From Nitrospiraceae bacterium (GTDB lineage: Bacteria > Nitrospirota > Thermodesulfovibrionia > UBA6902): a stretch of DNA of 63,245 nucleotides. The DNA is taken from assembly GCA_003599425.1 (NCBI GenBank), contig QZKC01000094.1, positions 1-63,245 on the forward strand, written 5' to 3'. How positions within the stretch are numbered: position 1 is the stretch's first letter; each line of letters starts with the position of its first letter. Position numbers and translations under genes: made by a program. The notes under the pieces are model-generated. The model was given only the letters and a program-made list of their open reading frames with translations. It did no database searches and was not told the DNA's origin. This document shows, piece after piece, positions 42,820 to 63,245 of this stretch.

Positions 42820-42829
42820 TCAATTTACC

Positions 42830-45800: not shown

Positions 45801-46543
45801 TTCCCTGTAACATCATTCTTGTGATACGTGGACTGGGTATGACATACCTCGCAGACCCCATCATATGTTGCATCGCCGTCCGCAAATGAGTTTGTACCCG
45901 TTGAATTGAAAAAACGAACTGTTTTAATTCCACTGTTAGGCGTGGTGATTTTTTCTCTAATGAGACTCCCATAAACAATGATGAACGTATTCCCCGGGCT
46001 GACCTTTGTCAGATTGATAGTTCCCTCAACCGTGAGCGTGTCGATGTTATTTCCGGTAATTTTATAATTGTAGGAGTTTTGTGCAATGTTGGGAACAAGG
46101 ATCAAGCCCTGATACTGGTTATCTGTCCATCCAGCCCCTGTCTTTGTCAGTGACGTTGCATTCACTGAAGATACTACCCCCTGATAGATGTAACTGGCGC
46201 TTCCATAGGTCCTGAACTGCTTGTGTCCGTGCGGGTTATGGCAAACACGGCACTCAACCGTCCAGTCTCCGTAACTATTATCCGTCTGATAACTGGAATG
46301 GGTATTTACCCCCATCGCCCCCCAATGACAACTCCAGCACAGTTGGTTGTATTCAGTATCATCTATTCCATTCTGACCGTACGTCAGTCCCTCTATCATA
46401 AGCGAAGGTTGTGAACCCCACACATAATGGCAACTCTCACAATTGATCCCTTCTGTGCCGTTATGGGGAAAATCAAGCGCATACCCATGAGCTGAAAAAA
46501 AGCAAAGCGCCATAACTAATAGTATTCTGATAATTGTATTCAT
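42830..46543 (-). CDS. CxxxxCH/CxxCH-domain multiheme cytochrome c (23 CxxCH plus 7 CX4CH)
   Basis: Counted by hand; the repeating C-x4-CH...W...CxxCH unit is the Geobacter-type TIGR01904-like pattern; signal peptide. Confidence 0.92.
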   Translation of the reverse strand: MNTIIRILLVMALCFFSAHGYALDFPHNGTEGINCESCHYVWGSQPSLMIEGLTYGQNGIDDTEYNQLCWSCHWGAMGVNTHSSYQTDNSYGDWTVECRVCHNPHGHKQFRTYGSASYIYQGVVSSVNATSLTKTGAGWTDNQYQGLILVPNIAQNSYNYKITGNNIDTLTVEGTINLTKVSPGNTFIIVYGSLIREKITTPNSGIKTVRFFNSTGTNSFADGDATYDGVCEVCHTQSTYHKNDVTGNHAHNAGTDCTYCHKHTKGFKIACDICHGYPPTVNTATGGPNGLVNNPGVTGSSTAGAHNVHVNTKGYDCATCHYNSVGTGSTHNNGLSVTLGFYLFNGSYQGGTYNGQSGVTYNATTTAPVTFVSNNNNKTCSNIYCHSTGQSTSSGSSSTPTYASPLWDTPASGVCGTCHNVTGLTSGSHAAHLGTTGVNGCGDCHTGAANNASSYNSANHINALIDVANSYTAGGTPGNGYGTCSTASCHDDATGNLKTTPTWGTPGGGCSECHADVPGTGSHTKHVTTTLYSTAVCGDCHDSAVRGTTPPEQHLDSNIDVYDVTAGDLGYPSNKTKASAYTTCTTAYCHSTGQSTTDGNSATPAYAIPTWGNSASAACGTCHKVTEASGLTSGSHAAHLGTTGVNGCSDCHTGAANDASSYNYSNHVNKSIDVANSYTKGGTPGNGYGTCSAAACHGNSSPTWGTDFTGIDGCTKCHGTPTASPAPAYTQAPPTDTAGDSAATDAQVGAHRAHLQSTISSNVACSECHIVPAIVSAAGHINDATPGTAELIFGALASSNSATPSYSGGQCSNVYCHGGAMPKGTTNGADRTPIWNNTNYLTGNAANDCSRCHGYPPSSLAVHSGKGATDCIICHNAGVNASGTGFTDPSSHINGTVNISDNCNDCHSSKGGPAPGNIADTPHARHVQTPYVGKVSTSDYGKLPNWYSYSNLGGVPNKGCGYCHPQSSATHMNGVINLNLDPNDTGAAGTMKGKNNTVQSYTQTQRVSVTCSSVYCHSSGYFDGSTYQYKSSPNWYGGTFVGDKCDDCHGNMPDTSSHMTHGRIAIHYDTIYNGTNGLLPAGAASGGGHGDPNTSTTINCNLCHNNVVKMAANDKNTVCAVCHAATPVGTMVIDPSATSHVTGTADINFANVIIRSKAQIRDDITTVTELNTYWQRNNGYKQGASSYDSSKATLASQATYSNGTCSNVSCHNGFDITWNTNISTCAACHQDVPRTDE

Positions 46544-49323
46544 TCCCCTATCCCAGGATTTCCAACCGCAACATTTACTCCATATTTTGAATTGAAAACC
46601 GTGAAGCTGCTTTTCTGTATTCCATAGGCATCGAATATTTTCACGACTGCCTCATTATTCATACCTGAACCCATGCCTGCGATTATCTCTGCTACTCCAT
46701 CTCCGTCCAGATCTCCGCTTGCCAGGTTAGCGCCATAATTTCCAGCTACCCCGGCATTGAATATGGATATAGTTTCAGCATCACCGTTTACAACCTGTAT
46801 ATCGAAACTCTTTTTATAACGGGGGCCGGTTCCGATGATGATCTCATCAAAATAATCTCCATTTATATCTGCGCTTGCCAGGCTGTTACTATTTACATAT
46901 CGTGATTCAACAGGAAATTCCTTAACAAGTGAAACACTCCACTGACCAACGCCCTTTTCCGTATTTACTTTCCATATCCGGATCCAGCCTTTAATACTTT
47001 TATTACCTTTTCCGGTTCCTGACATTGTGACCAGTTCACTCATTTCATCACAATCAATATCTGTGGTAGCAACACGAACTCCGTTATTCGTTTCAAAAGC
47101 AAGCAGGCTGATCCCACTGTCTACAAGTTTGTCCTGGGCAGTGTCATATGCAAATATTTTCACCTCAGCAGGATTATTGACCCCAGATCCCACTACTACC
47201 TCTGAGTGTCCGTCTCTGTCAAAATCACAACTGGTGACATTGGCTCCATATTTATAATCAAACGCTGTTGTTTTCAGTTGGCTCAGTTCATGACCTTTTC
47301 GATCGAAGATTCTTATTTCCGCAGGATTTGAAGGACCAGGTCCAGGAGCAGTGATGATCTCATCGTAGCCGTCACAGTTAACATCACCGGTTGCGACATT
47401 GACTCCATAGGGATACTGATGGGCAATGAATTCTACTCCGGTGGATGTTCCATTTGGGTTGTATCCCTTCACAAGTCCGTTATCTTCAAGTCCGGGGCCT
47501 TTGCCTACAATTATCTGCTTGAAATATCCACTCTGATTATTTGACGCTTCCTTTATGTATTCGCCGGTAAAACTGATGCTACTGTCTTTTTCCAGTGTCA
47601 GGCCCTGAGAAACCGGCTGCTCATATCCGGCAACATCTCCGAAAACTACGACGTATGTGCCGGCAGGTGCATCATTGACCTGCCAGTTCTTGCCGCTTCC
47701 AGAATATGAAGCAGTACCGTTGATGATGAATGTGGCCGCTTTTATATTTGTTAAGACATTGATCGCTCCCTTTGCCTCTGTGACACTCAGACTCACTGAT
47801 ACAGCCCTTGTATCTGACGTTGTGCCTTGTCCTTCTATTGTTATAGTTCCGGTATATGTTCCCTGCGTCATGCTTGTTATATCAGCACTCACTGAAATAC
47901 TATCCTGTGCTGTTCCAGCATATTTGTTTAAAGTAATCCACGCTCTGTCTGAAGAAGCTGTCCAGTTGAGTATGCCATCACCTGCATTGATTACAGAGAT
48001 ACTCTGTGATGACGGCTGAGCACCATTCAATGAAGTAAACTCCAAAGATACCGGCGTTACAGAAAGTACAGGTGTCGGTGGACGAACTACATTTAAAGTG
48101 ATATCAATTATTTCTGTGCCTCCTGATTCTGCGTTTATCACAACAGTCCCCTCGTATATTCCTTCTGACAATCCTTCAAGATTCACCCCAACCTGCATGG
48201 CATGGCTTTCTGACTGTGCAATGGAGCCAGCACTTTCGGAGAGAGTTATCCAACTGTCCTGAGCAGATGCTGACCAGCTCAGAACGCTGTTCCCTGTGTT
48301 TTTTATTTCCACGACCTTTGAATCAGGATTATTACCATTCGTAAATCCATCAAATGAAAGGACTGAAGGTGTCACTTCCATTTGTGTATATGCATCCAGT
48401 CCATACACTTCCACGCTTTTGGTATTTAGTGACGCTATAAACAGCCTGTTGCTTTTACCCCTAACCAGTCCCAAAGGGGTCCTTAGAGGATTTTCTGTTC
48501 CATAGATCGAACCGATATACAGGCCGTTTTCATCAAAGACACGAACTACCTGCTGATATGCATCGCTGACATATATTCTTCCAACTTCATCCTTGATAAC
48601 ACCGACCGGACGGCTTAGTTTCCCTGCTCCAATTCCATACTCTCCAAAACTCCTTTTGTAGATGCCGTTCAGATCAAACACCTGTACTCTTGCACCATGG
48701 CTCATTTCCGTTCCTGATTGCCTTAACTGACGGTCGACAACAATGATCTCTCCTGAGGTTTCATGGATTGATATTGAGGTGGGAAAAGTAAATTGGCCAT
48801 TGCTACTTCCACTCCCTCCAAAAGAATATTTGAAAGAGCCATCAGAATTAAATACCTTTATCAGATCCTGGTCGCTGTCCACCACATAAATTTCGCCTGC
48901 TTTACTTGTCGCTATCGCTATCGGTTGTTTGAATTCCCCATCTCCTGATCCAAGTTTGAATAACTTATGCAAATTGCTGTCATAAGCTTCTACGTTCCCA
49001 TTTCCTTGATTACCCACAAAAATTCTCCCGCTTTCGTCAACCGCAACGCCAAGTGGTACATTCAGTCCATAAAGCAACTTCAACAGGTGGCCGCTCTGGC
49101 TGTAAATGAGCAATCTGTTCTCTATTGATTCAGTTACATAGAGGTTTTCATATATATCGAGTGCTGCAGCAGTGGGGGCCGTGAGATTTTCCGTAACCGG
49201 CTGAAGTCTTGAATAGTCAGGCATAACAGCAGCCTGTAATGACACTGTCCATAAGAACATAAAACAAAGAAAAAAATACAGCGAGATAAAATCACATCCT
49301 ATATTCGCTCTACTCTTTTTCAT
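46540..49323 (-). CDS. NHL beta-propeller plus two BACON/Ig-like domains, PEGA-like domain and FG-GAP repeats
   Basis: GSGDGEFKQPIAIA and GQFTFPTSI repeats; VTPSVLSF...N.G...LSWSAS..WITL twice; VATGDVNCDGYDEII repeats; GGAG RBS before ATG 49323 (track start 49362). Confidence 0.85.
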   Translation of the reverse strand: MKKSRANIGCDFISLYFFLCFMFLWTVSLQAAVMPDYSRLQPVTENLTAPTAAALDIYENLYVTESIENRLLIYSQSGHLLKLLYGLNVPLGVAVDESGRIFVGNQGNGNVEAYDSNLHKLFKLGSGDGEFKQPIAIATSKAGEIYVVDSDQDLIKVFNSDGSFKYSFGGSGSSNGQFTFPTSISIHETSGEIIVVDRQLRQSGTEMSHGARVQVFDLNGIYKRSFGEYGIGAGKLSRPVGVIKDEVGRIYVSDAYQQVVRVFDENGLYIGSIYGTENPLRTPLGLVRGKSNRLFIASLNTKSVEVYGLDAYTQMEVTPSVLSFDGFTNGNNPDSKVVEIKNTGNSVLSWSASAQDSWITLSESAGSIAQSESHAMQVGVNLEGLSEGIYEGTVVINAESGGTEIIDITLNVVRPPTPVLSVTPVSLEFTSLNGAQPSSQSISVINAGDGILNWTASSDRAWITLNKYAGTAQDSISVSADITSMTQGTYTGTITIEGQGTTSDTRAVSVSLSVTEAKGAINVLTNIKAATFIINGTASYSGSGKNWQVNDAPAGTYVVVFGDVAGYEQPVSQGLTLEKDSSISFTGEYIKEASNNQSGYFKQIIVGKGPGLEDNGLVKGYNPNGTSTGVEFIAHQYPYGVNVATGDVNCDGYDEIITAPGPGPSNPAEIRIFDRKGHELSQLKTTAFDYKYGANVTSCDFDRDGHSEVVVGSGVNNPAEVKIFAYDTAQDKLVDSGISLLAFETNNGVRVATTDIDCDEMSELVTMSGTGKGNKSIKGWIRIWKVNTEKGVGQWSVSLVKEFPVESRYVNSNSLASADINGDYFDEIIIGTGPRYKKSFDIQVVNGDAETISIFNAGVAGNYGANLASGDLDGDGVAEIIAGMGSGMNNEAVVKIFDAYGIQKSSFTVFNSKYGVNVAVGNPGIGE

Positions 49324-49380
49324 CTTTATCTCCATATATATGTTCAGTAATTTATCGCTCATTGTCCTATTTTTTTACAA

Positions 49381-50355: not shown

Positions 50356-50625
50356 CTATTTGGGTTGATTCTTTTTGTAACGTGTCGTTTCCTTAAATAT
50401 ATCGGCGTGGCAACTTAAGCAATCGATGATGTTACCGCCGGCGGCCTGAACCATGGCCTCATATTTTTTGGGGTTTTTCTGTTTTACTTTTTCGATATGC
50501 TTTTTGATCAGCTCTTCAGTCTTTGAGTCTGCAAATGCCACTGTTCCTGAAACTGACAACAGTGATAAACATGCAAACAATATCGCTATTGGTCCTAATC
50601 TTCTCATAATAACACCTCGCCTCAT
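50356..50625 (-). CDS. Small exported monoheme cytochrome c
   Basis: Signal peptide (AFA-D); single CLSCH; start may be ATG 50604. Confidence 0.65.
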   Translation of the reverse strand: MRRGVIMRRLGPIAILFACLSLLSVSGTVAFADSKTEELIKKHIEKVKQKNPKKYEAMVQAAGGNIIDCLSCHADIFKETTRYKKNQPK

Positions 50626-50628
50626 GTT

Positions 50629-51942
50629 TTAAAACAAATAATCGCCATATGCCACTGCATCAATCAGATTATTTCCGTGTTTGTGACATTCAGTACACAG
50701 GCGATATTCATCACCTATGGGTCCATGACAGGTTGTCGACGAACACCCTGCATCTCCTCCAGGTACCGTTGCCGGATGGTCATGCCTTGCATCACTTATA
50801 GCAATATCATGGCACTTGTTGCACAAATTTATCCATTCAGTATTTGGATCTCCTGAGGGGCCAGATCCTGTCCCTGAATCGACAGTAACTGTACTGCCTG
50901 TGCTGCCATTAACTTCCCGTCTTATGAGAAAGAGATTGGGGGAGCTGTGAGGCTCATGACAATCAGTACATGCAAGGACATATGTACCACATGTTGCTGA
51001 TTGATAAGGCGCAAAGATATTTGAACACGTATCAGGTTCCCCAACAGGAGTATTGTTGTCGGCGGTTCCGCTACCGTGTTTTTCGTTACTCCAACTGAAC
51101 GTATTCAGGTTCCTCGCAAGAGGCGTGCTGCTAATCGTATTTGTGTTATTGTGGCAATCTGTGCAATAGGTAACATAATCAGTCAGGTTCGTTCCATTCT
51201 GAGTTGTTGAACCATCCGGCTCATATGTTACAACAGAATTGAACCTGTACGGAGCCTGATATCCTGATGTATAATCACTCATCTTCTCACCTGCACTGTC
51301 TCCCCATAGTCCCCAGGAATTATTGTCATTGCTTGAATGCAGACTGGGGCGGGAAACGGGATACCCACGCGAACCTGAAGTTTTTGCACTGCCCGGTGCA
51401 TTCGCAGGGTCTCCCTGGGCAGCATGCGGATTATGGCATGCATTACATGGGTTAGAGTCTGCTGTATAATTCCATCTCCCTGTGATGAATGTTCTTATGT
51501 CATCAAGATAATGCGACGTGTCCGGTGAAGTAAATGAAAAAGATTCGAGGGTGTCATTTACTGTATCAGCATTCCAGCCGCCTGCGCGGTAACTGTAACT
51601 CCTGTTAATAATGCTCCCTCCCGATTGATAAGCCCCTGCATCCTTATGGCACTGAAAACAGAAATTATCGGTCTGGCTCACATGGTTACTGTAAAATAGC
51701 GTGAATGAGGATGGCCCGCCTGATGATGGCAGCGGTTCTGATCCGTCTATGCTGGCATGCATTTCATGACAGTGAGCACACAGGCCTTTTGTGTAATCAG
51801 GGAATCCTGATGCAGTCCGCTTAACGCCATAAGTGGAATTCCCATGAGCTGAGCTGAGATATGTACCGGCATCCGCGAACTTGCCGCAAATAAGCAAGAT
51901 TGAAATCAGCACTGTTCCAGTGATAAAAACGCTTTTTTTCAT
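50629..51942 (-). CDS. Extracellular-type multiheme cytochrome c (7 CxxCH plus 1 CX4CH)
   Basis: CAHCH, CFQCH, CNACH, CTDCH x2, CNKCH, CTECH, CSSTTCH; signal peptide; Ser/Thr/Gly-rich. Confidence 0.9.
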   Translation of the reverse strand: MKKSVFITGTVLISILLICGKFADAGTYLSSAHGNSTYGVKRTASGFPDYTKGLCAHCHEMHASIDGSEPLPSSGGPSSFTLFYSNHVSQTDNFCFQCHKDAGAYQSGGSIINRSYSYRAGGWNADTVNDTLESFSFTSPDTSHYLDDIRTFITGRWNYTADSNPCNACHNPHAAQGDPANAPGSAKTSGSRGYPVSRPSLHSSNDNNSWGLWGDSAGEKMSDYTSGYQAPYRFNSVVTYEPDGSTTQNGTNLTDYVTYCTDCHNNTNTISSTPLARNLNTFSWSNEKHGSGTADNNTPVGEPDTCSNIFAPYQSATCGTYVLACTDCHEPHSSPNLFLIRREVNGSTGSTVTVDSGTGSGPSGDPNTEWINLCNKCHDIAISDARHDHPATVPGGDAGCSSTTCHGPIGDEYRLCTECHKHGNNLIDAVAYGDYLF

Positions 51943-51964: not shown

Positions 51965-53110
51965 TCAGTTTCTTGATGTATGACATACGTTGCATCCTGA
52001 TATGGCGGCTGAAAGAGTTGAACTCCTGTAATTCCATCTCATCATATCATCATTATCAGTTGCATGTGCGGCATGGCAGGACAAGCACATGACCGCAGTT
52101 CCAGAACCCGGGGTTACTGTGCTGCTCATTGAGCTGGGAACTGTCGTTCTTGCAACAGGTATGGTTATATTGTACGCTGTATAGCTTGCATATTCACCGC
52201 TATTAGGCAATATCACATCTGTGGGGTGCCGAAGGAAGGGTGAAGTAGTATCATCCCCTATACCCTGTGAATTATCCAGTTGATTAATAACATGGAATGC
52301 CCGGTGACATGTCCCGCAAAAACCGCTCATAGTATTGTTGGAGACCTTTATCCCGCCCGAACCTATTGGAGCAACATGACAAAGACCCGTACAGTCTCCG
52401 TTGTAAACAACCGGAGCAGTCGCTCCAAAGTATTCATTGTGGTTCGATGCATCAAAGTTCTGCCACTTCGTAGATGCACTGACCTGACCGTCGTTTTCGT
52501 ATCCCATGACTGAATACAAAAATCTGTAGCTATTGTACGTCTGGTCCGCAACATCGATCTTTCCGCTTGTGTTTTTGTGGTGAGCGCCTTTCACCCCGCC
52601 AGAGCTTGAACGGATACCATGACATCCTCTCGCACCGGCGCAGTTGAGTGTCGACCCGAAATTACTCACCGGCGCATGATAACCCGGAGGCCCGGCCAGC
52701 GCCCCTGTTAATGTATTATCAAGATTGCCAAGGTCTATAACATTATGACCTTTGTTGTCTGAGGCTCCGCTGCCTTTGGTCCCGAGCACATAGGCAAAAT
52801 TACCTCCAGCAAGATCAGCAGACGCACTGCTGTGATATACCTGCGGCGCTCCGGTGACAGGGTCAATATTGCTTGCGGCACCTGAGCCATGACAGCCCAA
52901 ACACCCGCCCAATGTCAGTGCGTCGTACGGCCCGGTACCTTTCCATGGCTGACCTGAAGCACCATATGTAGCCACTGCCGAACCACCCTGGCTGTTATGC
53001 ATTGTATGACATGTGCTGCACGCACCCGATATGGCTGTATTTCCATAATCAGCGGGGGTGCAGATAACGGCCAGCAAGATGACGATATATTTTAAAGTTT
53101 TCATTGACAT
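51965..53110 (-). CDS. OmcS-like multiheme cytochrome (5 CxxCH plus CX5CH plus CX3CH)
   Basis: Motif order matches OmcS as recalled: CxxCHTMHNS.GG, CL.CH, GG.F..V, KGHN, L.C..CH, MS.[FW]C..CH..[FI]H, LRHP, V.CLSCH.AHA...M.R.N, terminal C..CH. Confidence 0.75.
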
Positions 53111-53181: not shown

Positions 53182-54468
53182 CTACATTCTGTGACATTGT
53201 ATGCAAAGCGCCCTGTTCCGGTCAGCAGTAAGCATAAAATCAGCTCTCGCTGCATGCATACTATGGCATGAATTACAGGTGACAGGCCCTCCGCTTCTTG
53301 GATCCACTATATTTGGCCCAACCGGATGCGTAACTTTATGTTGCGATTCATGGCATCGCACACACATAGCAATCTCATCATCCCTGTAATTGAGCGGCCG
53401 GTCTGAATGCATCGGGATGTGGCACTCAAAACATTTCCTGTTTTTTACAGGAGCACACCCTACTGATTTCAGGGCCTTCTCCATTGCAGCAGTGTTTCTC
53501 TCGGTCTTCTCATGGCATCCCGAGCAAATCTTTGTTTCGCTTGCGGTAAAACTCTTCTTCCCGGATGCGTGGGAGTCATGACAAACAACACATGAATTCT
53601 TTGCATCTTTCACATGGATATCGCTGCTGACATATTTCAATTGTGAGTCATCCTTTTTATGACAATCGAGGCATACTCCCTCGCCTTCTTTTTTAGTCGT
53701 TATCCTGCTTCCCGGAGTAATAGGATTGTGGCACTGGCTGCATTCCTTGTCCAGAAAGGCCTTATGTCCATAAGGGCCAAGCGCTCCTTTTATCTGTGAT
53801 CCGTGACCTGAGTGGCATGATGTGCAATCTGATACAGCTACTTCAGAGACAATGGACACTTCACCTGCCCTGCATCTGGGTGCATGACACTCGCGGCAAA
53901 GCTTATTCGGAGCAGAAATCAGCAAAAACTCCTCCGAAGACCCGTGCGAATTATGACAGGATGAACATTGGCCTTTCTTGAAAGGCGAGCATCCATATGG
54001 CTTATCCATCTGTGCTTCTATGTTTTCATGACAACCAATACAAAGGTCTTTCTCAGCATTTACAAGAAGGTTCGTATAATTGCCGCTATGTGGGTAATGG
54101 CATTTTGTGCAGAGATCGTCCCTGAGCGGACTATGGACGCTTTGGCTTTTCAGAAGATTACGGATCTTTTCATGACAGCCGATACAGACAGAATTAACAT
54201 CATCCATCAAACCCTTGACATTCCCGGCATGGGAATTATGGCAGGTTAAGCACTTGCCCTCTCTGAAAAGAAAGTGAACAGCAGGGGATGAAAGTTTTTC
54301 TTTCAGTTCCCTGTGACATTCATAGCAGAGGCCGGGGACAGATGATTTCAGCTTGACCTCAGCAGGAGCAGGAGAATACCCAAGAGGCATAAGAAAATAA
54401 ATTATTATGAAGAGGACAATCTTGATTTTGAGGTTTTCAGTGGCACGCATCGCAGTCTCCTTCCGCAA
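53182..54468 (-). CDS. 16-heme periplasmic cytochrome c (doubled-CXXCH/cytochrome c3-like repeats)
   Basis: 16 CxxCH counted by hand, with CxxCHxxH repeats; start may be ATG 54447. Confidence 0.92.
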   Translation of the reverse strand: MRKETAMRATENLKIKIVLFIIIYFLMPLGYSPAPAEVKLKSSVPGLCYECHRELKEKLSSPAVHFLFREGKCLTCHNSHAGNVKGLMDDVNSVCIGCHEKIRNLLKSQSVHSPLRDDLCTKCHYPHSGNYTNLLVNAEKDLCIGCHENIEAQMDKPYGCSPFKKGQCSSCHNSHGSSEEFLLISAPNKLCRECHAPRCRAGEVSIVSEVAVSDCTSCHSGHGSQIKGALGPYGHKAFLDKECSQCHNPITPGSRITTKKEGEGVCLDCHKKDDSQLKYVSSDIHVKDAKNSCVVCHDSHASGKKSFTASETKICSGCHEKTERNTAAMEKALKSVGCAPVKNRKCFECHIPMHSDRPLNYRDDEIAMCVRCHESQHKVTHPVGPNIVDPRSGGPVTCNSCHSMHAARADFMLTADRNRALCIQCHRM

Positions 54469-56410
54469 CCGGCTTGTGAAGAATATTTTTCAGCAGTCCT
54501 GGTTTTTCCGTCACATGCGGGACATGACAGGTCAAGCAATGGCCGATCTTCGCTATCGGCTGAGTATGTGCTTTAAGAAGATTCCCGGTATCCTCTGAAT
54601 GGCATTGCACGCATAAAGCAGGATCCTTGGCACTCAGCAAATATTTTGAATCAGAATAGTGGGGGAAATGGCAGCTCAGGCAACTCCCCTCCTCCAACTG
54701 AAGGTGCCCTTTCCTCGTTTTTGCAGTTATGATCCTCTCATGACATGAGAGACAAAGCTCATTTGGCTTGTTCAAAAGCTGATATTTGAGCTTGGTACCA
54801 TGAGGACTGTGACAGGACGTACAGTTGCCGTTTTCTACAGGCAGATGTTTGTTGCTGCTCTTATACGTTTCGGTCTCCATTTTCTTATGGCATGTATAAC
54901 AAAGCTCCTTCACCGGCCTGGTGATGACCCCGGTGAAATCACTCGCATGGGGATCATGACATTCATTACATTTTTTATCCCTGAACAGGGGATGCCCGCC
55001 GCTTTTATCAACTCTCAGGAACATGCTCTCATGGCATTTGATGCAAACCTGCTCCGGCGGCCTGCTCAATAATTTTTCAAATGAAGACGCATGTGATCTG
55101 TGGCAGGAACCGCACGCTCTCTTTGCTACCGGGGTGTGGACATATATTTTGAAAAAATTTTTCTCTTCTTTCTGGTGACAGGTATAACACAGATCAACAG
55201 GGGAAACCTTCATCATATATGGATATCCAGTTCCGTGTGAATCATGGCATTTTGTGCATTCAAGACTGGAGAAAGGTTCATGGGAGAAGGCCATTTTCAA
55301 TTCATCACGCACTCCCTGATGACAGGTAAAACACAACTGCTTCTGTGAAGCTTTAAGGTAATACGGATTTTCAGATGCATGAGGATCGTGGCAGGCTGTA
55401 CAGCCCTGCTTTTTGATCGGGTCATGCACATGTGACACGTTTATCTTAGGTTTTTCAGCGTGGCACTTCATGCACAGAGCATTTTTATCCTCTCTGGTGA
55501 TCTTTGGATAATCAGAGGCATGAGGGCTGTGACACGTGATGCACTCTCCTTTTTCTGTAACCGGATGCCTGTATGCTGTCCGGTATGAACGCTCTTCTTT
55601 TTTATGACAGGAATAACAAAGTGAGCTGCCTGAAGCTGTCAGACCGAACGGCTCCGGATCAGTCGCTGGCCTGTGGCAGGAACTGCATTGAGCGAGTCTT
55701 AACGGTTCATGAACAGATTCTCTAAGCAATTTATCATTGGAGGAACTGTGAGGAGCGTGGCAGTCTGAACAGTGTGATCGCTCAACCGGATAATTCTTGT
55801 GGGCATTATTAAAAACAGAAGACTTGTAATCATGGCAGGAGCTGCATAACTCCCTCTCTTCCTTAATGAGGTTGCTCTTGAACTGAGACCCATGGGCTGC
55901 ATGACAGGCGAGACAGCCATCCTCAAGCGCTTTATGCTGTCTGGGCCGGGCAAAAGAAGTTTTATCATGACAGACAAAACATTGCCCGCTTCCTGTATTT
56001 TTTTGCAAAGACTTATTGTCTGAAGCATGCGGATCATGGCACGGAAGACATACTCCGTTTTTCAGGGCAGTATGGACACTGGACATTTTCTGGACATCTG
56101 AAGCCATCTGTGAATGGCACGTGTAACAGAGTTTCCTCTCTTCTTTTTCCCTGAATGATTTGACTGCAAGCTTTCCATGCCTGAGGTGGCAGGACTCACA
56201 GTCCTGTTTACTCATCGGATCATGGACATACTTCATCTTAAAAGCATCCTGCTTTTCCTTATGGCAGTCCATACAGGGCTTTGGCGCAAATTTCTTCCTC
56301 ACCTGCGGTTCAGGGGCACAGGAAACGAAAATAGCTGTTATCAGAACTGTCAGAATTAATTTAAAAATGTTATGAGGATTAATTCTTTCCACCTTTGAAC
56401 CCTTTTTCAA
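54437..56410 (-). CDS. 26-heme cytochrome c lipoprotein
   Basis: 26 CxxCH counted by hand; lipobox FVSC. Confidence 0.92.
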   Translation of the reverse strand: MKKGSKVERINPHNIFKLILTVLITAIFVSCAPEPQVRKKFAPKPCMDCHKEKQDAFKMKYVHDPMSKQDCESCHLRHGKLAVKSFREKEERKLCYTCHSQMASDVQKMSSVHTALKNGVCLPCHDPHASDNKSLQKNTGSGQCFVCHDKTSFARPRQHKALEDGCLACHAAHGSQFKSNLIKEERELCSSCHDYKSSVFNNAHKNYPVERSHCSDCHAPHSSSNDKLLRESVHEPLRLAQCSSCHRPATDPEPFGLTASGSSLCYSCHKKEERSYRTAYRHPVTEKGECITCHSPHASDYPKITREDKNALCMKCHAEKPKINVSHVHDPIKKQGCTACHDPHASENPYYLKASQKQLCFTCHQGVRDELKMAFSHEPFSSLECTKCHDSHGTGYPYMMKVSPVDLCYTCHQKEEKNFFKIYVHTPVAKRACGSCHRSHASSFEKLLSRPPEQVCIKCHESMFLRVDKSGGHPLFRDKKCNECHDPHASDFTGVITRPVKELCYTCHKKMETETYKSSNKHLPVENGNCTSCHSPHGTKLKYQLLNKPNELCLSCHERIITAKTRKGHLQLEEGSCLSCHFPHYSDSKYLLSAKDPALCVQCHSEDTGNLLKAHTQPIAKIGHCLTCHVPHVTEKPGLLKNILHKPVAEGDCDACH

Positions 56411-58118
56411 ATGAATCCAGGTTTTCAGGATACATTATTATTTCAGCATCCTGTCTCAGTTTGTCCGTATAGCCGCTGAGGAGCTCATTGAACTTCTTCC
56501 GGAACAGTATCGCCTGGATTGAAGATTTTACTTTACTGAAATCCTCAGGCTCTCTCCTGCTCTTTTCCTGAAGCATGATGATCTTGTAAAACTCAGCGTC
56601 TTCAATTATGGAGCTTATATCGCCGGGATTCATTGAGTCAATAATTTCCTGTAACGGCCTCGGAAGACCCGATTTCATTGACCATCCAGCATCCCCTCCC
56701 TGCAGGGCATAAGAATCAGCAGATCTTGTTTTTGCAAGCCATGAGAAACTCGCGCCGCCCTTCAGGCTGCTCTCAATATCTTGGGCTTCCTCCCTTGTCT
56801 TTAAGGTGATCTGCTGGATTTTATACGTATAAGGCTTTAAGAACTCATCCTGATGATCTGTATAATACGTATTTAAATCTTCATCAGATATTATTATCTT
56901 CGGGACGAGTACAGTAGTAAAGAATGTATTTTTAAGGATCTGCTCCTTATATCGCCTCGCCATATCTTTCAGATCAGATGTTGCGGTATATTGGCGCCTC
57001 AGAGCTTCAATATCAACCAGCTTTTTATCAAGCCAATGGTTCAAAACCGCTTCTTTATTGCGGCTTGTACCGGAAAGCATGGCAGTAAAAGCACCTGCGG
57101 TGAGAACCGTATCTTCAACCTCTACCAATGGCCTCTCATCCTTTAGCCATGTTTCCCTTGCTTCATTCTTTCCGTCAAATACAATAGCAGACAAGATATC
57201 ATCATGTACCATTGGTTTGATCGATCCACGGAGAGACCTGAGATATTCAGCACTACGCTCTTTTATCATCTGCTGTTTGGCCTCATGCGTGATCTTTTCC
57301 CTGATCTTTTCCAGGTCCTCAACGGGGGCCTCCTGCCGGCTGATCAATTTCAGGATGTAATATTTATTGCCGTTTTCGATAACACCGCTGAACTCTCCTT
57401 CTTTGAGAGAGGCAACAGACTCATCAAATTTTGTTCCGAGGGAGTTCCTTGTCATGACAATTTCAGTTTGATCTTTCAGGACATGAGGGGTATGTCCCTT
57501 TGCCATGTCGCTGAAATTGCTCCCGCTTCGCAGTTGTTCAAGGATCTTTTCTGCTTCCTCGCTGGTATTTGCCTCGATAACGGAAAGAGTAAGCCGCTCA
57601 TAGTTCTTCCTGTAATATCCTCTGATATCTTCTTCATCTACAGATACTTTATGCAGGATCTCCTCATCGTAGAGCCTTGTTACCGACTCCCTGAGAATAT
57701 ACGCCTCTGTTTTCTGCCTCACTTCTGGAAATTCTTCCATATTCATGTGCTTCGCTTCCTGCACGATCAGTTTGTCGTCTATGAGTTTTTGCAGATAGTC
57801 ATGTAAGTTAAGAGACTGGGCGGATGACATGTCCTCCCTCCTGTGCGATATCTCAAGTGAATACACGTAGTCTCCTGTCGTGACAGGTTCACCATCAACA
57901 AGCACGAGAATATCGCTTTTGTGAGGCAATGACGCGCATCCAAATAAAAACAAAACAAAAAGCAGGGGATACAGGAGAAAAAAAAGAGGATTTACGGAGT
58001 TATAAAGCAGTCGCGACATGGCGATTACACTGTTTTGTATCTTCGCCGACAGCAGCTTGACTGCCTTTATGTTGAACACTCTGAATGCTAAATTTATTGT
58101 TTGCTCGGTCATTCTCAC
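56379..58118 (-). CDS. SurA/PpiC-type peptidyl-prolyl isomerase lipoprotein with two parvulin-like domains
   Basis: Lipobox LFGC; GSNFSDMAK and GASFSWLAKTRSADSYALQGGDAGW; true start possibly ATG 58019. Confidence 0.85.
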   Translation of the reverse strand: MRMTEQTINLAFRVFNIKAVKLLSAKIQNSVIAMSRLLYNSVNPLFFLLYPLLFVLFLFGCASLPHKSDILVLVDGEPVTTGDYVYSLEISHRREDMSSAQSLNLHDYLQKLIDDKLIVQEAKHMNMEEFPEVRQKTEAYILRESVTRLYDEEILHKVSVDEEDIRGYYRKNYERLTLSVIEANTSEEAEKILEQLRSGSNFSDMAKGHTPHVLKDQTEIVMTRNSLGTKFDESVASLKEGEFSGVIENGNKYYILKLISRQEAPVEDLEKIREKITHEAKQQMIKERSAEYLRSLRGSIKPMVHDDILSAIVFDGKNEARETWLKDERPLVEVEDTVLTAGAFTAMLSGTSRNKEAVLNHWLDKKLVDIEALRRQYTATSDLKDMARRYKEQILKNTFFTTVLVPKIIISDEDLNTYYTDHQDEFLKPYTYKIQQITLKTREEAQDIESSLKGGASFSWLAKTRSADSYALQGGDAGWSMKSGLPRPLQEIIDSMNPGDISSIIEDAEFYKIIMLQEKSRREPEDFSKVKSSIQAILFRKKFNELLSGYTDKLRQDAEIIMYPENLDSFEKGFKGGKN

Positions 58119-58178: not shown

Positions 58179-59252
58179 TTATTGTGACAGTGCTTTCTTC
58201 ATCTGTTTCACCATTGATGAGACGACGTTATAGGCAACCCTGTCAGCTGGCTCTTTCTCTCCCCATTCAAAGGCAATGACATTCTTTTCGCTGTTTAATC
58301 GAGACGTATTATACCACAGTATTTTGTTATTACGGGCATCCAGCAGCCTTGCAGTCATTGATATTACCGATGCAGTTGAGGTATCGGATCCTGAGGGATA
58401 GCTCTCTACAGTGCCGAGGAGTACCGTGTCCGCGTCCAGTTCTTTTGATAACTCCTCCATCCTTTTGTAATCAAGTTCCCCGTTGCTCCTCACTTGCAGT
58501 TCAACTAGCATTTTTCTGACATCCCCGAATTCGATAGGCTCAAAAGGGGCCTGTTTCAGAAGTTCTACCAGGAACATATACATCGCAACCATGCCGGCCC
58601 CGTCAAATCTGCTTTTGTTCTGAAAAGGGATAACGGCCACTCGATATGTTGTCTCCTTTTCCCTCTTCGCAGGTGAAACGTGAAAAGACTCCAGAAGCCT
58701 ATCAAGCGCTCCTGGAACAAGTTTCTCCACTTCCCTGGTCCTGCCCAATCCCAGGATTGAGGTAACATCTGCACCGCTGACAAAGGCATAATCCGCCCAG
58801 ACAATAAGGCCGGTAGTTGTGTCAATAAGCCGTGCTACGAGGCCTACATGCGGGTCATCTCCTGAAAAAAATGAAATTATCGAACCTGTAAGAATGCTCT
58901 GCACCTGAAATTCCTCATACAGTTTACGGGCCGTTTCTCCCGATACATACCCTGCAAGCCTCGACCTCTCCTTGCAAAGGAACTCACTGACTGCATCCTC
59001 ATCCATTACCTCAAACCCTCTTGTCTGCAGTTCTGCCTTTAACGCGGGAATAAGCTTTTCCCCGGCTCTCTTGTCAACGCTGAAGTTATCGAAAACAAGG
59101 ATAGCAATCTTTCCGCCTGTGCTTTGGAGCGGGCTCTCAACGAGGGGGGTATCTGTTTCCGCTGCTGTGACAAAAGGAAACCCTGTAAGCAGCAAAGCAG
59201 TTGATGCAATAAGGATTATAATTATCGTACAGTTCTTAGCAAACATTTTCAT
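58179..59252 (-). CDS. Protein with two tandem CsgG/LpoB-like domains
   Basis: KIAILVFDNFS...GSI...ARLIDTTTG.IVW and RVAVIPFQNKS...LGTV...ARLLDARNNKILW. Confidence 0.7.
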   Translation of the reverse strand: MKMFAKNCTIIIILIASTALLLTGFPFVTAAETDTPLVESPLQSTGGKIAILVFDNFSVDKRAGEKLIPALKAELQTRGFEVMDEDAVSEFLCKERSRLAGYVSGETARKLYEEFQVQSILTGSIISFFSGDDPHVGLVARLIDTTTGLIVWADYAFVSGADVTSILGLGRTREVEKLVPGALDRLLESFHVSPAKREKETTYRVAVIPFQNKSRFDGAGMVAMYMFLVELLKQAPFEPIEFGDVRKMLVELQVRSNGELDYKRMEELSKELDADTVLLGTVESYPSGSDTSTASVISMTARLLDARNNKILWYNTSRLNSEKNVIAFEWGEKEPADRVAYNVVSSMVKQMKKALSQ

Positions 59253-59290: not shown

Positions 59291-59872
59291 TTACTGTCTT
59301 TTGAGCGTCTGTACCATTCCCCGTATCAAAACCATAACCGTCTCGCTCATGGTTTCCGATTTTGCGCCAAAATGTCGAGCCATAAAGTCAGCACCTCCGC
59401 GCGTTCCGGTCATGGACCAGACAATATTGCCTGACCCCGTGTCCGCCATCATCAAGGTAATGGTCGCCTCAGGAGCAGAGACATTCCCTATACGGGTCTC
59501 CCCGTACTTTTCGACAGCCCCAATAATAAGCCCCTCAACCTGTAGCGACTTGCCGATGGCCTGTATCTGCTTTTCATTTAAAGATGAAATGTTCTTTATA
59601 TCAAGGTCATTCAGCGCCGTCATAACCTCCCCGGGGACAATAACATCAACCAGCCCTGAAGCAAGCAATTCACTGGTGACTATCTGCCTAACGATGTCTG
59701 CCGCCGCCCTTTCAGGGGTCAGATTGTCTAAAGGCATAACCGCAACCTTTTTGAAATAACTGAAATCAATGTCTTCACGTATATGGTAAACAGGGGCGCT
59801 GCTGCGACAGCCCGAAACAATCACTACAACGAACAACATAAGGGTCAATATACATTTCTTCATCATATTCAT
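59291..59872 (-). CDS. CsgG/HfaB/GNA1162-like lipoprotein
   Basis: Lipobox VSGC; KVAVMPLDNL, VEGLIIGAV, DTGSGNIVWS. Confidence 0.7.
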   Translation of the reverse strand: MNMMKKCILTLMLFVVVIVSGCRSSAPVYHIREDIDFSYFKKVAVMPLDNLTPERAAADIVRQIVTSELLASGLVDVIVPGEVMTALNDLDIKNISSLNEKQIQAIGKSLQVEGLIIGAVEKYGETRIGNVSAPEATITLMMADTGSGNIVWSMTGTRGGADFMARHFGAKSETMSETVMVLIRGMVQTLKRQ

Positions 59873-59883
59873 AACGCTTCTCC

Positions 59884-60504
59884 TTAAAATAAATTATCGA
59901 ATGCCTCTTTTATGACATTCCTGGAAACTTCGCCCAGCGTAGCAATTTCTGCCCCGAAATGTCTTGTCCAGAATCCCGGACCTCCGCTCGTATGCCATGT
60001 TGACCAGAGTACCTTGCCAGTTGCCGATTCATACAGCGTGAGATAAACCGACACCTCGGGATAGGAAACCGATATCCCCCTGCTTATTTGATATACACTA
60101 ACTGAGCCGCCCATAATCCCATCTACCTTCAAGGCTTCACCTATCTCCTGAATGTCCGATGGCGTCAATGCTTTCAGGGAACTGACCCTCATCTCCTGCA
60201 GCACCCTCCCGACCTCTCCAGGTTCTGTAACATCTATCCCACGTGACAGGAGTTCGATGCCTGTAATGCTGCCTATCTTTTCATCAGCATATCCATCGGT
60301 AGTGTAGTTTTCAAAGGGAAGAACTGCAATACTCTTAATGTGTTTTACATCAGTGTGGGGACGGCTATAGTGTTTTACTCCGCCGCTGCATCCACAGATA
60401 AAAACCAGACATACATAAAAGAGCAGTTTTCTTTTATCCCTCAGCATCATTTTTAGTTCTAATCTCCCGAAACTGTTCTGAAAATCCCGTTTATTATAAG
60501 GCAC
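59884..60504 (-). CDS. CsgG/HfaB/GNA1162-like lipoprotein
   Basis: Lipobox-like ICGC; SIAVLPFENY, VDGIMGGSV, ESATGKVLWS; paralog of the neighbouring gene. Confidence 0.7.
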   Translation of the reverse strand: MPYNKRDFQNSFGRLELKMMLRDKRKLLFYVCLVFICGCSGGVKHYSRPHTDVKHIKSIAVLPFENYTTDGYADEKIGSITGIELLSRGIDVTEPGEVGRVLQEMRVSSLKALTPSDIQEIGEALKVDGIMGGSVSVYQISRGISVSYPEVSVYLTLYESATGKVLWSTWHTSGGPGFWTRHFGAEIATLGEVSRNVIKEAFDNLF

Positions 60505-60508
60505 CTCA

Positions 60509-62773
60509 TCAGAATCTGCAATTTATATTTGCGGTTACGTTATAGCTTTCGGTTTTATTTTCTTCGCTTGTAACTGTATATCCTGAGGAGAGCCTTAGAT
60601 CGGCAAACTTTGTTATATACCAGATCCCGAAACCATTGATCGTGTCTGTTGTTGTCGGCACCGGGTCAGCTTTGCTGTGCTGGTATCCAAGGTTCAGCCT
60701 TATGGCCGGCAACGGAAGCCAGTCTGCTGTTATTCCTTCGGAAATGGTACTGTCGCCGTCTGCGTCAGTAAAATTAAAGTTGCCCGACAGATTGATAAAC
60801 TGTCCCGGCTGATAGTTGACGATCAGAAGTACATTCTTTGAATCAATAGAATCCTCTTCCGATAATGTATTGGTTATGCCGTAATTCAGATTCCCCGTAA
60901 TGGTGCGGGTGATCCGGGCATTGACCGTCCCGTTTATGAAACTGGTTTTTGATGATGACGTGTTAGATAAAAAGGATTCCGTTTCGGTATATCCGATATC
61001 ATTGATCATGTTGATATACCGGTACAGTTGCGCTCCGATGCTTAACAGATATGAATTACTGACAGAGTCTTTTTCATTAAAATTATATCGTTCGCTCCTG
61101 ATGAGCGAAAGGTTTGTATCAAGCGTCGAAAGGGGGTTAGAATGAAAAGACAGGGAATAAGTATCCAAATACGTATCTATATCATTCTGATTGTCAAAGT
61201 TCTCATTTTTCTGAAACCGTGCCGTTGTGGTAAGCAGCCTGTGCGTCTGCCATATGGCTCCTATGCCAACGTCCCTTGTAATGTTGCTCCTGAAACCAGA
61301 CCCGCCATCCTCTATGGCCTTATCAAAGATGTTTGTAAGTAAACCGCTGAGGGAGCTGAGATAGGACTCCTGGTTCTGATCCCTCCTTTCCACAGAATAA
61401 TCCAGCGTCAGGGTAAGTTTCTCATGAGGATTGGCACCGGCATTGAAGTTCAGCCTCTGGTTGAAGGACCTGAATACATCACTATCCTCACTGTCCGTTA
61501 TGTTGTCCGTGCCGTATGCCTCAATTTCCGTAACAAAAACGTTGGGATTGAGAATGCCGGAAGTCACGAGATTAACCGCCTTAAAGAATGAAGCATTATG
61601 GGGAGAGGAGAACTCTATTTCGAAACGGTATATATTGTTCAGTGCGTCAAATACGATAACCTTAACATCACTGATCGCTATTTGTGTCCAGGTGCCGCCC
61701 TGATTGAAGTCGCTTTTGTAAATATTCCATTGTGCGGGGTTATCAAGTATGTCGTTGAATACATTCGTGGTACTGCTAACATAAATGAACAGCCTGTCCA
61801 CAGGTCTTTGTGAGGATACTGATACCCCAATGTTATGGAGTTTATTGTTCGGATTTGAACTGCCGAGATCGATACCTGTGCTCACATCGAAAATTTCGTT
61901 TGTTAAAACCCCATTGGAAGTTAAAATACCAATATCGGTCGTTACCCCATCGTGCGCATATAGTCCGGTCGCGGACCTCTTAAGGATTACCGTACCTGTC
62001 TGAGATGCAAATTGCCGCGTTTTCCCCCGTGAAAAATTACCCTGATAACCCACAAAATAACGGGATCTCATGAAGCGGAATGAATCTGAATAACCGACAT
62101 TGTACGTACCTGAAAAATTCTCGCTGATCGTCTTTTCAATAGCTGTAAGCGGGGTCCTGTCAGTTGCATGAGTATAGTTCAAGTGAAATCTGAGATCCAC
62201 AGCCTGTGAAGGCATCACATAGGTTGAGCTGACGGTATAGGTATCATTTGTATGGTCAATGTCATCGACTGAATCATGGTCGTAATCCTTTTGTTTGTCA
62301 TAATAAACTGAAAGAGACGGCAAGGAAACCGGATTCAGGTTAAAGCGTGAAAAGTAAAATTCTGATGTTTCTCTGCCTTCATCAGACAGGCGTGCTGTTG
62401 TCCAATCCTCTTCTCTCCTGTATCCAACGTTGAAGTCGTAGATAGAGTTGCGAAGAAAGAATGTAATGCCCGGCTCCAGGAGCCTCCGATTTGATTCTGT
62501 TGTAACGCTGGATTGACCGCTTGAACTGGAATCTATAAGATTTGCCCTCAAGTTAAACTGATATGACAGAAGCGGCGTAAGGTATTGCTCCATGTTCAGA
62601 TAATAATTCTGGTTGAGGGTGTCGCTGGATGATATCTTTTCTCCGTCCTGAACTACCCATGAATTATTATTGGATATATTTATCAGCCCGTTAATACCTT
62701 CAGAACAGGCAAGAGAGCGGCTTAGAATAAGCGCTATAGACATAACTGCAATTTTCCATGCCTTATGCCTCAT
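60509..62773 (-). CDS. Outer-membrane beta-barrel protein with an inserted globular domain
   Basis: Signal peptide, many amphipathic beta-strands, C-terminal YNVTANINCRF ending in Phe. Confidence 0.75.
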   Translation of the reverse strand: MRHKAWKIAVMSIALILSRSLACSEGINGLINISNNNSWVVQDGEKISSSDTLNQNYYLNMEQYLTPLLSYQFNLRANLIDSSSSGQSSVTTESNRRLLEPGITFFLRNSIYDFNVGYRREEDWTTARLSDEGRETSEFYFSRFNLNPVSLPSLSVYYDKQKDYDHDSVDDIDHTNDTYTVSSTYVMPSQAVDLRFHLNYTHATDRTPLTAIEKTISENFSGTYNVGYSDSFRFMRSRYFVGYQGNFSRGKTRQFASQTGTVILKRSATGLYAHDGVTTDIGILTSNGVLTNEIFDVSTGIDLGSSNPNNKLHNIGVSVSSQRPVDRLFIYVSSTTNVFNDILDNPAQWNIYKSDFNQGGTWTQIAISDVKVIVFDALNNIYRFEIEFSSPHNASFFKAVNLVTSGILNPNVFVTEIEAYGTDNITDSEDSDVFRSFNQRLNFNAGANPHEKLTLTLDYSVERRDQNQESYLSSLSGLLTNIFDKAIEDGGSGFRSNITRDVGIGAIWQTHRLLTTTARFQKNENFDNQNDIDTYLDTYSLSFHSNPLSTLDTNLSLIRSERYNFNEKDSVSNSYLLSIGAQLYRYINMINDIGYTETESFLSNTSSSKTSFINGTVNARITRTITGNLNYGITNTLSEEDSIDSKNVLLIVNYQPGQFINLSGNFNFTDADGDSTISEGITADWLPLPAIRLNLGYQHSKADPVPTTTDTINGFGIWYITKFADLRLSSGYTVTSEENKTESYNVTANINCRF

Positions 62774-62879: not shown

Positions 62880-63245
62880 TTATTTCGGGAATACCGCGAT
62901 CCCGTAGGGTCTGTTGCCTACCGGTATAACCATTTCTTCTTTCCTTGCGGTCTTATCAACTACAGAAACACTGTTTGACCCCCTGTTGACCACATAAAGC
63001 TTTATTTCCTCAGGGTCAAGAATAAAAGAACGGGGAGCATCTCCTACCGCAACCACCCCCATGACCGGCGGAGTTACCGTTTTCAAAGCAGCGGAACCTT
63101 CTGTAAACGGCCGTACGATCATGATCTCACCTGGTCTTTCTTTTAAAAGGTAAAGCCTGTCAAACACAGGATCAGAAATGACACCTGTTATGGAGGTCCC
63201 GACATTGTTGATAGCGCTAACCGCATTCTCATCCTCTCCTTTTAT
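62880..63245 (-). CDS. YVTN/YncE-type beta-propeller protein, C-terminal part (runs off the window)
   Basis: Frame open to the window edge; VAVGDAP..., LYVVNRGSNSVSVVD, IPVGNRPYGIA. Confidence 0.85.
   Translation of the reverse strand: MKGEDENAVSAINNVGTSITGVISDPVFDRLYLLKERPGEIMIVRPFTEGSAALKTVTPPVMGVVAVGDAPRSFILDPEEIKLYVVNRGSNSVSVVDKTARKEEMVIPVGNRPYGIAVFPK

Follow-up and report, generated by a model that had tools for sequence, protein, structure and literature searches.

The stretch analysed here, referred to as the window, comprises 63,245 nucleotides of contig QZKC01000094.1 from a Nitrospiraceae bacterium, and the gene under study lies on its minus strand at 51965..53110. We read its product, with a probability of about 0.7 and on the basis of sequence and predicted structure, as a secreted, probably filament-forming, seven-heme cytochrome of the OmcS type encoded in an osc-type module. 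Five of the candidate heme-c sites are canonical CXXCH motifs (starting at C31, C70, C265, C342 and C373), and two are non-canonical, with CX5CH spacing at C157 and CX3CH spacing at C240. An earlier sequence-only reading of this DNA had pointed out the two odd motifs, CAGARGCH at 52619-52642 and CTGLCH at 52376-52393, and codon arithmetic on the printed strand confirmed both positions. Judging from the aligned sequences, both motifs are far beyond chance because the C, C and H residues were kept across the relatives. The protein starts with a hydrophobic signal (Table 1) whose cleavage is predicted about 3-4 residues ahead of Cys31, where the family consensus ends in ...A / xITGxC; the OmcS precursor showed the same layout (AFA/FHSGGVAEC). 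A lipoprotein reading was rejected, as the A-V-I before Cys17 is a poor lipobox and Cys17 is not conserved.

The protein was related over its full length to the hexaheme cytochrome OmcS of Geobacter sulfurreducens (GSU2504; PDB 6EF8/6NEF), which forms filaments. A family profile made from 45 homologues and searched against the PDB sequences gave OmcS as the sole match (E 1.5e-13, OmcS residues 8-359). A single-sequence phmmer search of the PDB found no OmcS match, and the searches of Pfam and NCBIfam gave generic Paired_CXXCH and MtrC-domain matches only, with no OmcS-specific NCBIfam family returned. By blastp, the identity to OmcS, OmcT and OscC was 26-27% over about 390 residues (E 2e-8 to 4e-11). 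Alignment by hhalign of 244 full-length family members, to which the conservation counts in this work refer, with 118 OmcS-family members joined the two families end to end (Prob 100, E 2.9e-49, 321 columns) and brought all six OmcS motifs, together with His16, His63, His110, His257 and His335 of OmcS, into register. All six OmcS heme positions were therefore occupied in order, but the third carried CX5CH and a seventh site was added.

Structure prediction agreed with the alignments. The AlphaFold (AF2) model, which was calculated from a 149-sequence alignment including six-heme relatives and true OmcS sequences, had a mean local confidence (pLDDT) of 89.3 and a predicted template-modelling score (pTM) of 0.89. 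Foldseek comparison of this model with the PDB gave 6ef8_A as the sole match (E 4.1e-7, prob 1.00, TM-score 0.44-0.49). The deeper alignment replaced a shallow one of 45 close relatives only, which had given a pLDDT of 51.8 and no Foldseek match. The modelled fold was heme-rich and almost without secondary structure, resembling OmcS. By these alignments and the model, the product is truly homologous to OmcS, though distantly, and its OmcS-type fold has diverged. The OmcS-like subunit with odd heme motifs and possibly seven hemes, suggested by the sequence-only reading, is upheld by profile and profile-profile homology, the predicted fold and, as described below, the osc synteny and the conservation of both odd motifs across the family together with a co-occurring extra His.

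Table 1. Positions of the cytochrome gene, its sites and its neighbours in the window
Feature	Position	Strand	Basis
OmcS-family cytochrome gene, 381 aa, seven candidate heme-c sites	51965..53110	-	Open reading frame
Predicted Sec signal peptide, residues 1-27	53030..53110	-	Sequence; putative cleavage site
Heme site 1, C31STCH35 then TMH38	52997..53020	-	CHTMHNS block common with OmcS
Heme site 2, C70LGCH74	52889..52903	-	242-243/244; aligned with OmcS CLNCH
His93 in PQVYH block	52832..52834	-	Aligned with conserved OmcS His63 (SYH63)
His122 in KGHNV block (= OmcS His110, KGHNI), candidate distal ligand	52745..52747	-	242/244
His145 (PPG-Y-H), best candidate distal ligand of seventh heme	52676..52678	-	Co-occurrence with site 4
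Heme site 3, C157AGARGCH164 (CX5CH)	52619..52642	-	Aligned with OmcS heme 3
His177-His178 (GAHHKN), without OmcS counterpart	52577..52582	-	244/244
His224 (NHNEYFG), conserved candidate ligand	52439..52441	-	238/244
Extra (seventh) candidate heme site, "site 4", C240TGLCH245 (CX3CH)	52376..52393	-	Clade-specific loop
Site aligned with OmcS heme 4, C265GTCH269, and His273	52292..52318	-	Matches MSEWCANCHTDIH
His295 in LRHPTD (= OmcS His257 in LRHPAG)	52226..52228	-	244/244; 1.0 in OmcS family
Site aligned with OmcS heme 5, C342LSCH346, and His349 (= OmcS His335)	52064..52087	-	Matches VNCLSCHRAHAS; 244/244
Site aligned with OmcS heme 6, C373NVCH377	51980..51994	-	242-243/244; OmcS CNKCH
Beta-propeller gene (OscD-like), cut by window end	62880..63245	-	phmmer E 5.9e-18, Geobacter 492-aa propeller
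754-aa protein, OscE position	60509..62773	-	blastp 3.9e-13 over ~700 aa, Geobacter 718-aa; no Pfam family
Two LpoB/GNA1162-like proteins, 206 and 193 aa, OscF position	59291..60504	-	phmmer 3.3e-26 and 7.6e-26, Geobacter 199-aa; Pfam LpoB
357-aa CsgG/GNA1162-like lipoprotein, OscG position	58179..59252	-	phmmer 3.2e-23, Geobacter 392-aa; Pfam families
579-aa PPIC-type prolyl isomerase (OscH)	56379..58118	-	Pfam Rotamase_2 7e-32; phmmer 7.3e-24, Geobacter 571-aa
26-CXXCH (657 aa) and 16-CXXCH (428 aa) cytochromes	53182..56410	-	Geobacter 660-aa and 426-aa, equal heme counts
437-aa cytochrome, 7 CXXCH and 1 CX4CH	50629..51942	-	Very remote OmcS-superfamily member
940-aa NHL / FG-GAP / BACON propeller protein	46540..49362	-	Pfam; NHL part like Geobacter osc-flanking NHL

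Like OmcS, the protein has a Sec export signal and belongs to an osc-type cluster, and the two share the sequence blocks CHTMHNS, GGNF/GGDF, KGHN, YR(F/I)L, LRHP and CLSCH-AHA. They differed in length, the mature OmcS having 407 residues and the present protein 354, the stretch from heme 5 to heme 6 being shorter here by about 40 residues, and in host, which is Geobacter for OmcS and Nitrospirota-like for the window. The first site aligned with C9..H13 of OmcS and His38 behind it with OmcS His16; C31, C34 and H35 were found in 241 of the 244 relatives and H38 in 240. The site at C265/C268/H269 was present in all 244, with H273 in 238.

Axial ligands could be proposed from the conserved histidines outside the motifs. 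The OmcS family has seven of them (H2, H16, H63, H110, H147, H257 and H335), and the present family has ten for its seven heme sites. H38, H122, H295 and H349, which aligned with H16, H110, H257 and H335 of OmcS, were essentially invariant. OmcS His2 and His147 had no aligned histidine in the family, while the pair His177-His178 and His224 were new in it; the pair is a candidate for the distal ligands in place of OmcS His147/His2.

The constant oddity of the family, as far as its sequences tell, is the CX5CH motif. C157, C163 and H164 were each kept in 242-244 of the 244 members, and the CX5CH spacing itself in 232. The consensus was L-T-C-[AS]-G-x-x-G-C-H-G, with G159 in 231 members and G162 in 235. 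In the hhalign alignment the site fell on C140SSCH144 of OmcS with a gap of three residues, that is, three residues were inserted, so that the statement of the sequence-only reading that the OmcS heme-3 position reads CAGARGCH was correct. OmcS sequences used as outgroup all had CX2CH at heme 3. A 2024 survey of heme-c motifs listed CX3CH, CX4CH, CX11CH, CX15CH and CX17CH (PMC11492766); in these motifs, too, the His comes right after the second of two Cys that are separated by more than two residues, but a spacing of five is not among them. Our literature search on CX5CH/CXXXXXCH found neither term in the top-ranked papers, and CX5CH appears to be undescribed as a regular heme-c attachment motif. 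The same survey, which covers Desulfuromonadia, speaks of "pentaheme" OmcS homologues (PMC11492766). These are probably six-heme proteins with the CX5CH uncounted, because counting CXXCH yields five in six-heme members. CXXCH-only counts are too low for these proteins, giving five in six-heme members and five or six in seven-heme members.

The machinery for heme attachment was examined in the genome itself, which is 89.6% complete. It contained one ResB and CcsA pair (contig C37, locus L089), so that a system for cytochrome c maturation accompanied the export signal of the protein. The second PF01578 match was a CcsA-like gene adjoining hemA (locus L088, contig C51), which is the usual HemX-type arrangement. 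A dedicated heme lyase was rejected as an explanation, since the two PF01578 matches were the ResB-CcsA pair and the hemA-adjacent gene. The long-spacing motifs of MccA (CX15CH) and SirA need dedicated lyases; here every spacing is presumably served by a standard System II.

The second odd motif, site 4, showed a different pattern of conservation. A C..CH motif was present at this place in 154 of the 244 members, and C240, C244 and H245 were each kept in 98-99% of those. The spacing varied, with CX2 in 99, CX3 in 22, CX4 in 22, CX5 in 5, CX6 in 4 and CX7 in a few, and at every spacing the His stood immediately behind the second Cys. Between H224 and C265 the loop had a median of 37 residues in members with site 4 and 24 in members without it, a difference of about 13. 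OmcS has six CXXCH only and carries no heme motif at the aligned place, so that the claim of an extra site between hemes 3 and 4, where OmcS has none, held; its CX3CH spacing was not a fixed oddity, as the relatives mostly have the canonical CXXCH. In a tree rooted with OmcS sequences, site 4 was absent at the root and concentrated in one derived clade of 160 leaves, 95% of them positive (support 0.80, five parsimony changes). From this distribution, site 4 appears to have been gained once.

A histidine without a motif of its own followed the same distribution. A His at positions 143-148 (His145 here) occurred in 143 of the 154 members with site 4 (93%) and in 2 of the 90 without it (2%). It was gone in 6 of the 8 clade members lacking site 4, and one outlier outside the clade that carries site 4 also had it. 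His93 was present in 89% of the members with site 4 and 17% of those without; it was set aside as a ligand of the seventh heme, since its alignment partner is the conserved OmcS His63 and clade members lacking site 4 still retain it. His145 was preferred over His93 because its presence and loss follow those of site 4 more closely, and its co-occurrence with the site makes it the likely distal ligand of the seventh heme.

The family is large. Among the candidates scored in a clustered database there were 2417 matches; 1393 representatives at 50% identity had E <= 1e-3, and at least 494 loci were found in species-representative genomes. These loci were mostly from Nitrospirota/Thermodesulfovibrionia, with Desulfobulbia, Desulfurivibrio, Desulfuromonadaceae and some metagenome-assembled genomes labelled Pseudomonadota. 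Seven motifs were found in 77 of the 80 best genome loci, and the carriers included the cultured Hydrosulfovibrio ferrireducens CB1MN and Desulfurivibrio sp. D14AmB. In sequence terms, the odd motifs are a property of a large clade, not of this single gene. OmcS homologues in Thermodesulfovibrionia have already been reported from hidden Markov model screens (PMC8478452), and our literature search found no mention of seven-heme OmcS relatives. The seven-heme, CX5CH branch of OmcS, as defined by these sequences, is a large, undescribed variant, while OmcS homologues and osc clusters themselves are already known. The genome of the window also holds a second OmcS-like paralogue of 418 residues on another contig (C26:1498-2754, minus strand, locus L085), which is of the six-heme type with CX5CH present and site 4 absent; the genome therefore has both six-heme and seven-heme forms. 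Its neighbours are a 327-aa NHL protein and a sigma-54 response regulator, an arrangement also seen at the omcS locus of Geobacter.

The genes around the cytochrome were compared with the Geobacter locus (L083) by reading the window along the minus strand from 63245, and the Osc letter names were assigned from gene order and from citing papers. The Geobacter order is OmcS, OmcT, a 1017-aa protein, OscC, a 492-aa propeller, a 718-aa protein, a 199-aa LpoB-like protein, a 392-aa protein, a 571-aa rotamase, a 660-aa cytochrome (26 CXXCH), a 426-aa cytochrome (16 CXXCH) and an NHL protein. The window was collinear with this cluster, and eight flanking genes had a significant counterpart. The homologues of the prolyl isomerase (OscH), of the channel-like OscE/F/G and of the propeller OscD were all adjacent and in the same order as in L083. 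They were followed by the two multiheme cytochromes, which matched their Geobacter counterparts with 38% identity (657 aa, E 5.6e-149) and 33% identity (428 aa, E 7e-57), and further on by the 940-aa propeller protein, which matched the Geobacter 301-aa and 327-aa NHL proteins (phmmer 3.5e-10 and 9.7e-10). Statements in papers that cite the original work describe osc as the omcS-companion cluster and assign OscH to folding, OscE/F/G to secretion and OscD to morphology (PMC13194489, PMC13712944). Shen et al. 2025 (Cell Chem Biol 32:239), which both of these papers cite, calls the cluster widespread in its title. The two clusters differed in several respects: the OmcS gene stands upstream of the export genes in Geobacter and the OmcS-like gene downstream of them in the window, the single OscF-like gene of Geobacter is duplicated here, the 1017-aa spermine-synthase-like protein has no counterpart in the window, and the Geobacter osc locus lacks two giant cytochromes (1237 and 1603 aa) that the window appends.

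The gene order of the window recurred in many Nitrospirota and Thermodesulfobacteriota loci, and the Geobacter-like order, with tandem OmcS-like genes first, was seen in other loci including that of Hydrosulfovibrio ferrireducens CB1MN. Tandem arrays of 2-4 diverged OmcS-like genes stood ahead of the export genes in loci L005 (7634-11017), L022 (5811-11203) and L069 (8653-11050); these genes had 27-55% identity to the query, in an arrangement like that of OmcS and OmcT in Geobacter. The 437-aa cytochrome directly downstream of the gene was kept in this position in related loci and aligned with the OmcS family by hhalign (Prob 97.5, E 6e-12, OmcS 31-372). This protein may serve as another subunit of the filament, or else as its cap or anchor. 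Its alignment covered OmcS hemes 1-5, with extra hemes at its C-terminus. Between it and a TPR protein lies an 89-aa open reading frame with a single CXXCH (50356-50625, minus strand), kept in 5 related loci. Downstream of the NHL propeller, the giant cytochromes occupied 38008-46543 on the minus strand; the 1237-aa protein, kept in at least L046, carried 23 CXXCH and 7 CX4CH, and the 1603-aa protein carried 11 CXXCH, all in its C-terminal part. Positions 1250-33539 were taken up by a surface-glycan cluster with a sugar transferase, asparagine synthase, glycosyltransferases, a carbamoyltransferase and Wzy-like and Wzz-like proteins, interrupted by a Mutator-family transposase at 28634-29854. 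Glycosylation genes also stand alongside omcE clusters in Geobacter (PMC13712944).

These features can be joined into a model of assembly. The cytochrome would be exported by Sec and made beside a complete osc-type module for folding and export, with a propeller, a putative large outer-membrane protein, LpoB/CsgG-like lipoproteins, a prolyl isomerase and the cytochromes with 26 and 16 hemes. Six heme sites would correspond one to one to OmcS hemes 1-6, with heme 3 held in the Gly-rich C-A-G-x-x-G-C-H loop. C240/C244 would bind the seventh heme, its proximal ligand being His245 and its likely distal ligand His145, between the OmcS-equivalent hemes 3 and 4; the loading of sites 3 and 7 with heme is what we infer from the conserved motifs. 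Outside the cell, the subunits would then polymerise head to tail as a heme wire, in which His38 of one subunit serves as a ligand of heme 5 in the one that follows.

Several points weigh against this model. The TM-score to OmcS was below 0.5, and the region of site 4 was the least confident internal part of the predicted structure (block pLDDT 72). The association of His145 with site 4 (Fisher p 4e-51) reflects mostly one ancestral event, so that the p value overstates independence. The CHTMH block is also present in the Geobacter paralogues OmcT and OscC, and we know of no evidence that these form filaments; because they carry it, the block alone is no proof of polymerisation. No extra lyase was evident in the 89.6%-complete genome, despite the CX3CH, CX4CH and CX5CH sites of the cluster. 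The absence of CX5CH from the published list (PMC11492766) makes heme attachment at this spacing a presumption.

The position of the seventh heme was the point on which the alternatives came closest. It may be placed in line between hemes 3 and 4, giving a longer conductive chain and a longer subunit repeat, and this possibility deserves to be taken seriously, as the order of hemes along the OmcS fibre is the order of the motifs in the sequence (PMC6584659), the added motif comes after motif 3 and before motif 4, and the TM-score to OmcS leaves room for a rearranged core. The six-heme relatives, however, keep the other blocks and differ mainly by the loop that is about 13 residues shorter, the separation of hemes 3 and 4 would need a larger rebuild, and the mature protein is shorter than OmcS. 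The seventh heme is more likely to lie to the side, close to hemes 3 and 4, than to form an extra link of the main chain, because the six-heme relatives hold the full OmcS set and site 4 looks like the graft of a short loop. This would agree with the possible branch heme of the sequence-only reading, which may then alter conductivity. OmcZ of Geobacter, an octaheme filament with one branched, solvent-exposed heme (PMC13712944), is no more than an analogy: if heme 7 is such a side heme, a linear chain would here, too, have a lateral heme for entry or exit; no sequence or fold relation of OmcZ to the present protein was detected.

Polymerisation was considered against a monomeric role. The inter-subunit histidine of OmcS is reportedly His16 (Wang et al. 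2019), the counterpart of His38. All twelve axial ligands of OmcS are histidines, and heme 5 receives one of its two from the adjoining subunit (PMC6584659). A cytochrome of the OmcS fold could instead stay monomeric in the periplasm or at the cell surface, as a shuttle or terminal reductase, with the osc-like genes serving another cytochrome such as the 437-aa neighbour or the six-heme paralogue on another contig. The cluster and the genome do hold other proteins of the OmcS superfamily, and the Geobacter osc cluster itself contains OmcS paralogues. This reading seems unlikely, given that His38 and the heme-5 block were kept in 240-244 of the 244 members (His38 in 240, the heme-5 block in 244), that the gene lies directly within the osc-like operon and in an equal place in many genomes, and that the fold has the heme-rich, nearly secondary-structure-free character of OmcS. 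Head-to-tail polymerisation is the most likely course because His38 is kept and the OmcS biogenesis genes are adjacent.

It is improbable that the protein carries only five or six hemes, with the CX5CH or site 4 escaping the lyase and serving as a disulfide, metal site or axial ligand: the absence of CX5CH from the published motif list, the site-4 spacings of 2 to 7, unusual for a lyase substrate, and the single CcsBA-type system in the incomplete genome speak for it, but a disulfide or metal site needs no His right after the second Cys, which was kept in 99% of the site-4 carriers, the CX5CH stands exactly at OmcS heme 3, where the chain would be broken without a heme, yet its C, C and H were nearly invariant, heme attachment at CX3CH and CX4CH is accepted for other proteins (PMC11492766), and the extra His145 co-occurs with site 4.

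The most specific form of our proposal, to which we lean only tentatively and at somewhat less than even odds, is a seven-heme clade of OmcS-type nanowires, spread over Nitrospirota/Thermodesulfovibrionia, Desulfobulbia, Desulfuromonadaceae and other groups, in which the seventh heme is a solvent-facing side branch (His245/His145), together with family-wide attachment of heme at CX5CH by an ordinary System II lyase. If this is true, the CX5CH motif would widen the known substrate range of cytochrome c maturation, and the side-branch heme would give the otherwise insulated OmcS wire an OmcZ-like point of lateral entry or exit. Protein nanowires have OmcS as their reference model, and the theory of its conductivity assumes six hemes per repeat and one insulated chain. 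A widespread variant with another heme-3 loop and an added heme would be a natural experiment on heme number, geometry and side exits, and the two cultured carriers make the seven-heme reading testable. The variant could show how conduction and the hand-off of electrons to minerals or partner cells are tuned, and it would place OmcS-type wiring in the sulfate-reducer-like Nitrospirota of groundwater and the deep subsurface.

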